Of a stretch of 30,887 nucleotides of DNA, positions 1-1,977 are shown piece after piece. The DNA lies in assembly GCF_003334335.1 (NCBI RefSeq), contig NZ_QOWQ01000049.1; one strand, 5' to 3'. Origin of the DNA: Escherichia coli (lineage in GTDB: Bacteria > Pseudomonadota > Gammaproteobacteria > Enterobacterales > Enterobacteriaceae). The number at the start of each line of letters is the position of its first letter. Position 1 is the first letter of the stretch. Below the pieces are notes generated by a model, which did no database searches, was not told the DNA's origin, and was given only the letters and a program-made list of their open reading frames with translations. The position numbers and the translations under genes were made by a program.

Positions 1-59
1 TTTCTCTTCAACCGAACCGGCTGTTTGTGTGAAGTGATTCACATCCGCCGTGTCGATGG

Positions 60-115
60 AGGCGCATTATAGGGAGTTCTCCGCAGGCCGCAATAGAAAA
101 ATTGCAGAAAAATGA
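60..115 (-). promoter_or_regulatory. rrnE: rRNA-operon P1-type promoter reading leftward out of the window (rrnE by position next to purH)
   Basis: On the minus strand: -35 TTGCGG (plus coords 88..93), 16-bp spacer, -10 TATAAT (66..71), GC-rich discriminator GCGCCTCC, and an A/T-rich UP-like tract upstream (94..115). The CTCCCTATAATGCGCC core is the hallmark of E. coli rrn P1 promoters. The rRNA genes themselves lie outside the window. Confidence 0.6.
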
Positions 116-264
116 CTGACTGCTGCATTCCCCAGCAAAAGCCCGCTTTATACCTTTTTACGCACAGAGTTATCCACAATCATCAATGTAATTTCTGTAT
201 TTTGCCCACGGTAACCACAGTCAAAATTGTGATCACCATTGAAAGAGAAAAATTCGCGAGCGTT

Positions 265-280
265 GCGCAAACGTTTTCGT
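265..280 (+). promoter_or_regulatory. PurR operator-like site GCGCAAACGTTTTCGT, immediately followed by a TACAAT -10 candidate (281..286) for purHD
   Basis: Close match to the pur-regulon operator consensus (ACGCAAACGTTTTCGT) about 110 bp upstream of the purH ATG. The adjacent TACAAT hexamer is a plausible -10; I could not assign a convincing -35. Confidence 0.6.
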
Positions 281-318
281 TACAATGCGGGCGAAAAATA
301 AGGATGCCCCGTTAGGGG

Positions 319-354
319 CGTTAGCTGAGTTTTTCGCGAAAAATTCAGCTAACG
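319..354 (+). repeat. 36-bp near-perfect palindrome in the purH 5' leader (CGTTAGCTGAGTTTTTCG / CGAAAAATTCAGCTAACG), preceded by a small GC hairpin at 306..319
   Basis: Read directly. The two 18-nt arms are reverse complements except one position (g329/t344), which is a G-U wobble in the plus-strand RNA and a C-A mismatch in the minus-strand RNA. Confidence 0.85.
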
Positions 355-387
355 CTCTCTGTAATAGTCAAATCCAGGGGATTTACC

Positions 388-1977
388 ATGCAACAACGTC
401 GTCCAGTCCGCCGCGCTCTGCTCAGTGTTTCTGACAAAGCCGGTATCGTCGAATTCGCCCAGGCACTTTCCGCACGCGGTGTGGAGCTGCTGTCTACAGG
501 GGGCACTGCCCGTCTGTTAGCAGAAAAAGGTCTGCCGGTAACCGAAGTTTCCGATTACACCGGTTTCCCGGAGATGATGGATGGACGCGTGAAGACCCTG
601 CATCCGAAAGTACATGGTGGCATTCTGGGCCGTCGCGGCCAGGACGATGCCATTATGGAAGAACATCAGATCCAGCCTATCGATATGGTGGTTGTTAACC
701 TGTATCCGTTCGCCCAGACCGTGGCCCGTGAAGGTTGCTCGCTGGAAGATGCGGTTGAGAACATCGATATCGGCGGCCCAACGATGGTGCGCTCCGCCGC
801 CAAGAACCATAAAGATGTCGCAATCGTGGTGAAGAGCAGCGACTATGACGCCATTATTAAAGAGATGGATGACAACGAAGGATCGCTGACGCTTGCAACC
901 CGTTTCGACCTCGCCATCAAAGCCTTCGAACACACTGCCGCCTACGACAGCATGATTGCCAACTACTTCGGCAGCATGGTTCCGGCTTACCACGGTGAAA
1001 GCAAAGAAGCCGCCGGTCGCTTCCCACGCACGCTGAACCTGAACTTCATTAAGAAGCTGGATATGCGTTACGGCGAGAACAGCCACCAGCAGGCTGCCTT
1101 CTATATAGAAGAGAATGTGAAAGAAGCCTCCGTTGCTACCGCAACCCAGGTTCAGGGTAAAGCCCTCTCTTATAACAACATCGCCGATACCGATGCGGCG
1201 CTGGAGTGCGTGAAAGAGTTCGCCGAGCCGGCATGTGTGATTGTGAAGCACGCCAACCCTTGCGGCGTGGCTATCGGCAATTCCATTCTTGATGCTTACG
1301 ATCGCGCGTACAAAACCGACCCAACCTCCGCATTCGGCGGCATCATTGCCTTTAACCGCGAGCTGGATGCGGAAACCGCACAGGCCATCATTTCTCGTCA
1401 GTTTGTCGAAGTGATTATTGCGCCGTCCGCCAGCGAAGAAGCCCTGAAAATCACCGCCGCCAAACAGAACGTACGCGTTCTGACCTGCGGTCAGTGGGGC
1501 GAGCGTGTTCCGGGCCTCGATTTCAAACGCGTGAACGGCGGTCTGCTGGTTCAGGATCGTGACCTGGGGATGGTCGGTGCGGAAGAACTGCGCGTGGTGA
1601 CCAAACGTCAGCCGAGCGAACAGGAACTGCGTGATGCGCTGTTCTGCTGGAAGGTGGCGAAGTTTGTGAAATCCAACGCTATCGTCTATGCCAAAAACAA
1701 TATGACTATCGGCATTGGCGCGGGCCAGATGAGCCGCGTGTACTCCGCAAAAATCGCCGGTATTAAAGCGGCCGATGAAGGCCTGGAAGTGAAAGGTTCC
1801 TCGATGGCTTCTGACGCGTTCTTCCCGTTCCGCGACGGTATTGATGCCGCCGCCGCTGCGGGCGTGACCTGCGTAATCCAGCCTGGCGGTTCTATCCGTG
1901 ATGACGAAGTGATTGCCGCCGCCGACGAGCACGGTATTGCGATGCTCTTCACCGACATGCGCCACTTCCGCCATTAA
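388..1977 (+). CDS. purH: Bifunctional AICAR transformylase / IMP cyclohydrolase
   Basis: 529-codon ORF; translation recognisable throughout as PurH (N-terminal MGS-like domain, LSTGGTA motif). AGGGGA Shine-Dalgarno 8 nt upstream of the ATG. Confidence 0.97.

Follow-up and report, generated by a model that had tools for sequence, protein, structure and literature searches.

A conserved two-box DnaA site between the divergent rrnE P1 and purHD promoters of Enterobacterales

The region that separates purH from the ribosomal RNA operon rrnE in Escherichia coli carries two promoters placed back to back, rrnE P1 and purHD, and between them a perfect copy of the DnaA-box consensus. An earlier note on this DNA, drawn from the sequence alone, had pointed out this 9-mer and left two explanations side by side, namely function and coincidence. 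The locus thus raises the question of whether DnaA binds here and, if so, which of the two neighbouring transcription units, if any, is concerned.

The window, by which we mean the whole stretch of DNA that was analysed (30,887 bp), comes from E. coli K-12. Its positions 1..420 match the reverse strand of MG1655 (NC_000913.3) at every base in the purH to rrsE interval, window position x corresponding to MG1655 coordinate 4207920 - x. The window starts within the rrnE leader, in the P1-P2 interval, and the purH start codon is located at 388. A match to window 1..400 was retrieved from all 5,426 complete E. coli genomes (up to 100% identity), and extended over at least 80% of the length in 5,419 of them.

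The promoter anatomy proposed previously, with an rrn P1 core at 66..93 and a PurR box and -10 hexamer in front of purH, matches the sequence (table 1). Read as its reverse complement, 58..93 gives TTGCGG, a 16-bp spacer, TATAAT and the discriminator, and is 100% identical to MG1655 rrnE P1. All the attributes of an rrn P1 promoter were found, i.e. the -35 hexamer, the 16-bp spacer, TATAAT, the discriminator, an A/T-rich UP region and a 16S gene downstream. The P1 core CTATAATGCGCC is common to the seven E. coli rrn operons, and the GCAA part of the -35 is kept across the Enterobacterales loci described below. The +1 was placed at the A of window 57, nine bases past the -10, by analogy with the numbering of rrnB P1, a convention that agrees with the well-known T-33A position in the -35. 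From general knowledge of rrn P1 promoters, we take 94..117 to be the UP element of rrnE P1. The Fis site I candidate is strongly conserved across the Enterobacterales loci and sits where Aiyar et al. (2002) reportedly found Fis site I of rrnE P1; the Fis sites of all seven rrn P1 promoters are said to have been mapped by Hirvonen et al. (2001). The neighbouring TTATAC block, nearly invariant (1.7-1.9 bits per column in 49 Enterobacterales loci), could belong to a Fis site upstream of site I. It was rejected as a third DnaA box, positions 7-9 not being conserved, and also as a -10 hexamer, the position of the would-be final T not being conserved either.

On the purH side, the PurR operator is recognizable by its sequence, of which GCAA[A/T]CGTTT is kept in nearly all Enterobacterales loci, and its binding by PurR is well established. 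The start of purH transcription was placed near window 293 (7 nt past the -10). A consensus promoter scan called no promoter, and even the known rrnE P1 was missed because its -35, TTGCGG, is only a 3/6 match. An Rfam scan of window 1..700 returned sub-threshold matches only, and an RNA family was accordingly dismissed as an explanation of this region. One of these matches, to the Yersinia sRNA Ysr197 (26..85, minus strand; 26.9 bits versus a gathering score of 167), extends over the rrnE P1 core into the first part of the leader; the model of this family probably includes an rrn leader segment.

Table 1. Sequence features between the rrnE leader and purH (window positions; negative numbers are relative to the rrnE P1 start).
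Feature	Position	Strand	Sequence and remarks
rrnE P1 discriminator	58..65	-	GCGCCTCC, G+C-rich; from sequence
rrnE P1 -10 hexamer	66..71	-	TATAAT; from sequence; upstream of rrsE, identical to MG1655
rrnE P1 -35 hexamer	88..93	-	TTGCGG; from sequence; 16-bp spacer to -10
UP-element region of rrnE P1	94..117	-	agtcatttttctgcaatttttcta, A/T-rich; about -37..-60; from sequence
Fis site I candidate	122..136		GCTGGGGAATGCAGC, read in rrn direction; centred at -72; 15-mer with G and C ends
TTATAC block	148..153		-96..-91, between Fis site I candidate and left DnaA box
Left, weaker DnaA box	158..166	+	TTACGCACA; 7/9 to consensus; -109..-101
Right DnaA box	170..178	+ (purH strand)	consensus TTATCCACA; 9/9; -121..-113
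Variable spacer	179..240		carries about 54 bp absent from most other genera; no cross-genus conservation; polymorphic within E. coli
PurR operator	265..280	+	GCGCAAACGTTTTCGT; 14/16 match to 16-bp palindrome ACGCAAACGTTTGCGT; abuts purHD -10
purHD promoter -10 hexamer	281..286	+	TACAAT; from sequence; TA[C/A]AAT in relatives

The perfect 9-mer was confirmed at its reported position and within the upstream (Fis) region of rrnE P1; it lies at about -123..-115 relative to the putative purH start, and is the single perfect copy of TTATCCACA when both strands of the window are searched. Its rarity, put at once per few hundred kb in the earlier note, is a weak argument. Indeed, with equiprobable bases and both strands counted, one perfect 9-mer is expected per 131 kb, which amounts to 0.24 per window, 0.0017 in the 229-bp interval of the note and about 35 per 4.64-Mb genome. 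The E. coli genome contains 32, of which only 13 are bound by DnaA (PMC11317965). Considering that about 35 are expected by chance, 32 are present and 13 are bound, the 9-mer by itself is weak evidence. The note had, moreover, missed a partner box: TTACGCACA and TTATCCACA form a direct repeat with a 3-bp spacer between rrnE P1 and the purHD promoter, so that the site is a two-box unit. The combined pattern TTNNNCACANNNTTATCCACA, for which 0.01 occurrences are expected per window, was found once, at this site.

Other sequences related to DnaA sites or to replication control were noted nearby. A 7/9 DnaA-box match, GTAACCACA, lies at 211..219 on the same strand, 41 bp to the right of the consensus box. 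It is polymorphic among E. coli strains (GTAAACACT, GTAGCCACT), was discarded as a third DnaA box on account of this variability and is probably non-functional. The only GATC (Dam/SeqA) of the first 400 bp is located at 231..234, in the lineage-specific spacer and 53 bp from the DnaA site; no GATC cluster of the kind seen at oriC or at the dnaA promoter was found in these 400 bp.

DnaA binding at the purH-rrnE site is already known from published ChIP-seq and mutagenesis. Using SPA-tagged DnaA in MG1655, Stringer, Fitzgerald & Wade (2024, Microbiology 170:001474; PMC11317965) detected 16 bound regions, including a ‘purH’ peak at 4207740 with a 124-fold enrichment over control, to be compared with 123-fold for polA and about 200-fold for oriC, datA and DARS2. 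This peak was assigned to a ‘double DnaA box’, tTTACGCACAgagTTATCCACAa, which corresponds to window 157..179; the published qPCR amplicon corresponds to window 89..210 and the peak to window 180. Seven chromosomal mutants of the purH site were assayed by ChIP-qPCR in the same work (PMC11317965). The DnaA signal was greatly reduced when either box or both were mutated, and also when one base was added between the boxes; removing one base, or turning the left box into a consensus, had no effect on binding. The authors infer DnaA regulation of purH from binding alone, and mention rrsE solely as a read-mapping nuisance (PMC11317965). The purH-upstream site was recovered in a second, independent ChIP-seq study in 2026 (PMC12926920), and a 2025 paper on DnaA titration counted purH among the regulon genes of the oriC-proximal, box-rich zone (PMC12371093). 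We note that the footnote to Table 1 of PMC11317965 gives NC_000913.2, and that only with NC_000913.3 numbering does 4207740 lie 2 bp away from the box. This mismatch is harmless to the identity of the site, because the printed site sequence settles it either way.

From these published experiments, the site is bound by a DnaA pair in growing E. coli, with an occupancy close to that of polA, and both boxes as well as their 2-3 bp spacing are required. Two DnaA molecules bind cooperatively to the head-to-tail boxes, the strong box alone being insufficient. Published DnaA occupancy, proposed in the earlier note as a check, is thus found at this site in two ChIP-seq studies (PMC11317965, PMC12926920). 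Together with the dependence of in vivo occupancy on the boxes and with the order-wide conservation reported below, this decides the choice between function and coincidence in favour of function where binding is concerned, and coincidence falls. The purH-rrnE two-box unit is almost certainly a real DnaA-binding site.

The history of this site was followed with a PurH protein scan, one genome being taken per species. This provided 80 loci, of which 49 from Enterobacterales reach the site and 30 belong to other orders. Most of the Enterobacterales contigs end a few hundred bases upstream of purH, which fits an rRNA operon at this place since such operons end contigs in this way, and the rrn P1 core is visible in most. 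All 49 Enterobacterales loci display two boxes with a 3-bp spacer and one to three mismatches in total. The genera covered include Escherichia, Citrobacter, Kluyvera, Enterobacter, Cedecea, Pluralibacter, Dickeya, Brenneria, Erwinia and Pantoea, as well as Tatumella, Rosenbergiella, Serratia, Rahnella, Yersinia, Photorhabdus, Proteus, Moellerella and Budvicia.

Of the 49 loci, 45 have a perfect TTATCCACA in the right slot. In Tatumella and two Rosenbergiella loci the arrangement is the reverse of that in other genera, with the perfect box in the left slot and an imperfect one, TTACTCACA, in the right; these swapped pairs (L038, 1299..1319; L043, 196..216; L044, 186..206) lie at an unchanged distance from both promoters. 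The Pseudocitrobacter locus has a box with one mismatch in each slot. The left slot follows the pattern TTnnnCACA, in which positions 1, 2, 7 and 8 are invariant (49/49) and position 9 is A in 47/49, whereas positions 3-5 vary, as is the pattern for DnaA boxes. In an ungapped, box-anchored alignment, the nine columns of the box hold 2.0 bits each and the 15 columns to their right hold 0-0.3 bits; conserved blocks are also seen at the P1 core, at the -35, at the Fis site I candidate and at TTATAC. The box positions are accordingly under purifying selection in these 49 loci.

Within E. coli, 5,414 of 5,426 genomes contain the 65 bp that surround the site. No change touches the right box in the E. 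coli variants sampled or in E. albertii, and the variation sampled falls in left-box position 5 (degenerate), in the inter-box spacer (E. albertii) and in the flanks. The comparison made here shows that the two-box unit is ancestral at the rrn-purH junction and locked in position throughout Enterobacterales.

The same unit was sought elsewhere. Among the seven rrn P1 upstream regions of MG1655, only that of rrnE has the two-box site. The 30 loci from other gammaproteobacterial orders (Vibrionaceae, Pasteurellaceae, Aeromonas, Shewanella, Pseudoalteromonas and others) contain no double box above the null within 700 bp upstream of purH, the best scores being 4-7 mismatches versus 4-8 in random 700-bp pieces of the window, and none has a 16S gene within 1.5 kb of purH. 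The site therefore belongs to the Enterobacterales rrn-purH junction, as it is absent both where purH has no rrn neighbour and at the other rrn operons. One Vibrio displays a perfect single box 587 bp upstream of purH, without partner and within chance expectation. A datA-like or DARS-like locus was considered and rejected: rather than the several-box cluster and IHF site of datA, we found two boxes plus one non-conserved 7/9 match, and no IHF consensus WATCAANNNNTTR in window 1..400; rather than the three-box core with oppositely oriented boxes of DARS, two direct boxes on the plus strand and no third.

The distances that separate the pair from each promoter were then compared across the loci. 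On the rrn side, the left box and the ATTATAGG that belongs to the P1 core are 92 bp apart in 41 of 42 loci, and 91 bp apart in Proteus. On the purH side, 42-44 bp separate the right box from the PurR box in 40 loci, drawn from many genera, while the interval reaches 96-108 bp in nine others (97 bp in the window); named among these nine are Escherichia, Pseudocitrobacter, Kluyvera, three Citrobacter and one Enterobacter (L004, L005, L006, L008 and L014 included). The long spacers exceed the others by 53 to 65 bp, which is near to five or six turns of the helix, and represent only two or three independent indel events. The first 15 bp or so of the box-PurR spacer are unalignable although its length is held at 42-44 bp, and the purH leader of the same loci ranges from 69 to 280 nt. 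This conservation of length without conservation of sequence suggests that the distance to the purH promoter matters. Relative to the putative purH start, the pair is centred about 71 bp upstream in most genera, just upstream of a conserved A-tract, and about 125 bp upstream in E. coli. The inserts of E. coli and Citrobacter in the 179..240 region look unrelated in sequence. In E. coli TW01221 (L090), a 15-bp deletion at the equivalent of window 189..203 alters the helical phasing of the DnaA site relative to the purH promoter.

The purH 5' leader holds another conserved element, a long and near-perfect hairpin at window 319..356 (GCGTTAGCTGAGTTTTTCG/CGAAAAATTCAGCTAACGC); the RNA fold of 293..400 reaches -35.6 kcal/mol (z = -4.2). 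The base of its stem, CGTTAnCTGA…TCAnnTAACGCTCT, is kept across Enterobacteriaceae, Erwiniaceae, Pectobacteriaceae and Yersiniaceae (leaders of loci L002-L037), and so, at 33-40 nt in most loci, is its distance from the start codon. The top of the stem spans 12 to more than 60 nt, and the sixth pair switches between G-C, C-G and T-A. The stem was misplaced by regular-expression anchoring in a few loci, E. coli included. The hairpin is absent in Morganellaceae and Budviciaceae and matches no Rfam family. We regard it as a candidate for a conserved leader RNA structure or a DNA palindrome.

Several roles can be envisaged for the bound DnaA pair. They are not mutually exclusive, and we rank control of purHD first, an action on rrnE P1 second and titration only third; our literature search found no published measurement of purHD or rrnE transcription as a function of DnaA. 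In the preferred reading, the head-to-tail boxes (158..166 and 170..178) that the DnaA pair binds, which lie in control DNA common to the divergent rrnE P1 and purHD promoters, would serve as an operator through which DnaA tunes purHD transcription, and we infer this to be their most likely job. DnaA, the replication initiator, would in this way make the supply of purine nucleotides depend on its own state, as it does at nrdAB. A site of such high occupancy, 282 kb from oriC, must also hold some DnaA and so contributes to titration. Taken as a whole, with purHD control as its most likely output, this explanation comes near to an even call while falling slightly short of it, and is held less firmly than binding because the purHD step is a deduction. 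In its favour stand the near-constant distance from the boxes to the PurR operator, to be set against the free length of the leader, the suggestive proximity of the long spacers to whole helical turns, and the same view of purH regulation taken by the ChIP authors (PMC11317965). However, the literature search found no expression result linking DnaA or the boxes to purHD and, in what is an indirect test, triple deletion of datA, DARS1 and DARS2 left most of the DnaA regulon at wild-type protein level, only FliC, GlpD and NrdD being reported as changed and PurH not being singled out (PMC12371093). The distance of about 125 bp in E. coli is too long for a simple contact with RNA polymerase, and the helical-phase argument counts two or three independent indel events only. 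Moreover, rrn P1 is at a still more constant distance than purH, and the site tracks the junction rather than purH alone, the 30 loci from other orders having neither rrn neighbour nor double box. These last observations also speak for a different role, in which the double box is part of the upstream activating region of rrnE P1 and DnaA at -121..-101 modulates this rRNA promoter, a possibility that we consider real but doubtful. DnaA could compete or cooperate with Fis where rrnB P1 has its Fis site II, or alter the geometry of the DNA upstream of Fis site I. The distance to the P1 core is unchanged in the very loci that gained 53-65 bp on the purH side, no conserved block of the rrn side lies farther out than the boxes, with conservation stopping directly to their right, and the site occurs only where purH abuts an rrn operon. 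At oriC, DnaA oligomers extend from R4 toward the C1 (weak-box) side. Here the strong box has its weak partner toward rrn, in an order that matches the R4-C1 arrangement (Table 1 of PMC11317965), but the strong/weak swap in Tatumella and Rosenbergiella argues against an essential directional growth of an oligomer. A constant P1 distance is expected anyway because the intervening UP element, Fis site I and TTATAC block are themselves conserved, and the other six E. coli rrn P1 regions have no comparable site, so that it is no general rrn feature. At rrnB P1, sequences upstream of Fis site I contribute little, which also counts against an effect on rrnE, and our literature search found no effect of DnaA on rRNA promoters. 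A stronger version, which makes of the double box an ancestral component of the region upstream of rrnE P1, kept at -121..-101 in every Enterobacterales lineage examined, with DnaA acting with or against Fis on rrnE instead of or besides purHD, seems to us a little less likely again; if true, the replication initiator would be wired directly to rRNA synthesis.

The site might also have no transcriptional role and be a conserved DnaA titration site near oriC, buffering free DnaA once the region has been replicated. We find this rather improbable, even though occupancy is high (124-fold; PMC11317965) and the oriC-proximal zone is enriched in DnaA boxes and linked to titration (PMC12371093). Also in its favour, most regulon proteins are unchanged when the DnaA-ATP/ADP balance or titration is perturbed, and promoter boxes could serve both titration and regulation (PMC12371093). 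Two bound DnaA molecules are nevertheless a small sink compared with datA, whose box cluster and IHF consensus are missing here, and a pure sink gives no reason for a register fixed with respect to both promoters over the history of the order. The last alternative, a chance 9-mer or a sequence conserved for another protein such as Fis, with incidental DnaA binding, is scarcely credible. Perfect 9-mers are no commoner than expected (32 versus 35) and most are unbound, and the region is the zone of the upstream Fis sites in other rrn operons. Yet box-specific mutations remove DnaA binding in vivo (PMC11317965), and both slots show the DnaA-box pattern, with invariant TT and CACA, variable weak-box positions 3-5 and a perfect box retained in either the left or the right slot; a Fis site would not keep an exact 9/9 DnaA consensus across about seven families. 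The box mutants and the conservation pattern thus largely refute this last alternative.

To the known binding, the present analysis adds the order-wide conservation of the site, its fixed geometry relative to rrnE P1, its near-fixed geometry relative to purH and its absence where purH has no rrn neighbour. The purH-rrnE site ranks with the strongest that DnaA has outside oriC, datA and DARS2. Its two-box unit has persisted throughout the history of Enterobacterales, with an operon for purine biosynthesis on one flank and, on the other, a promoter of the strongest kind that the cell possesses. With a fixed register to an rRNA promoter and a near-fixed one to purH, it offers a clean place to study how DnaA couples replication to nucleotide supply or to ribosome synthesis. 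The comparative result sharpens, without answering it, the question of the target, be it purHD, rrnE P1 or titration.

Among known systems, the closest is the published purH double DnaA box itself, which is the identical locus with the same 23 bases (157..179) and the same conclusion of pair binding; rrnE P1, cross-species conservation and promoter spacing are not discussed there, and no purH expression data are given (PMC11317965). Relative to the upstream Fis sites of rrn operons, the pair occupies the same zone upstream of Fis site I as Fis sites II and III of rrnB P1 (-102 and -143), the left box spanning -109..-101. It is, however, a DnaA site without a recognizable Fis site, and is unique to rrnE among the seven operons. 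The box within guaB, a gene of purine nucleotide metabolism, is like that of purH a perfect TTATCCACA, but it is single and unbound in vivo (PMC11317965); it illustrates why a 9-mer by itself should not be taken as diagnostic. Both the datA double box (…ACAgagTTATCCACA) and the R4-C1 pair of oriC have the layout of the purH site, with a weak box followed by the gag spacer and TTATCCACA, and its 2-3 bp spacing rule is that of the low-affinity oriC sites (PMC11317965). oriC and datA possess extended box arrays and IHF sites, and oriC an unwinding element as well, whereas the purH site consists of two boxes without IHF consensus.

The pairs at nrdA (gTTATCCACAaagTTATGCACTt) and polA (tTTATGCACAaagTTATCCACAt) are built like the purH site, with a consensus and an imperfect box in direct repeat separated by 3 bp (PMC11317965), and nrdAB is, like purHD, an operon for nucleotide supply. 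A transcriptional effect of DnaA is reported for nrdAB and polA. Unlike both, the purH site stands between two divergent promoters, one of which is an rRNA P1.
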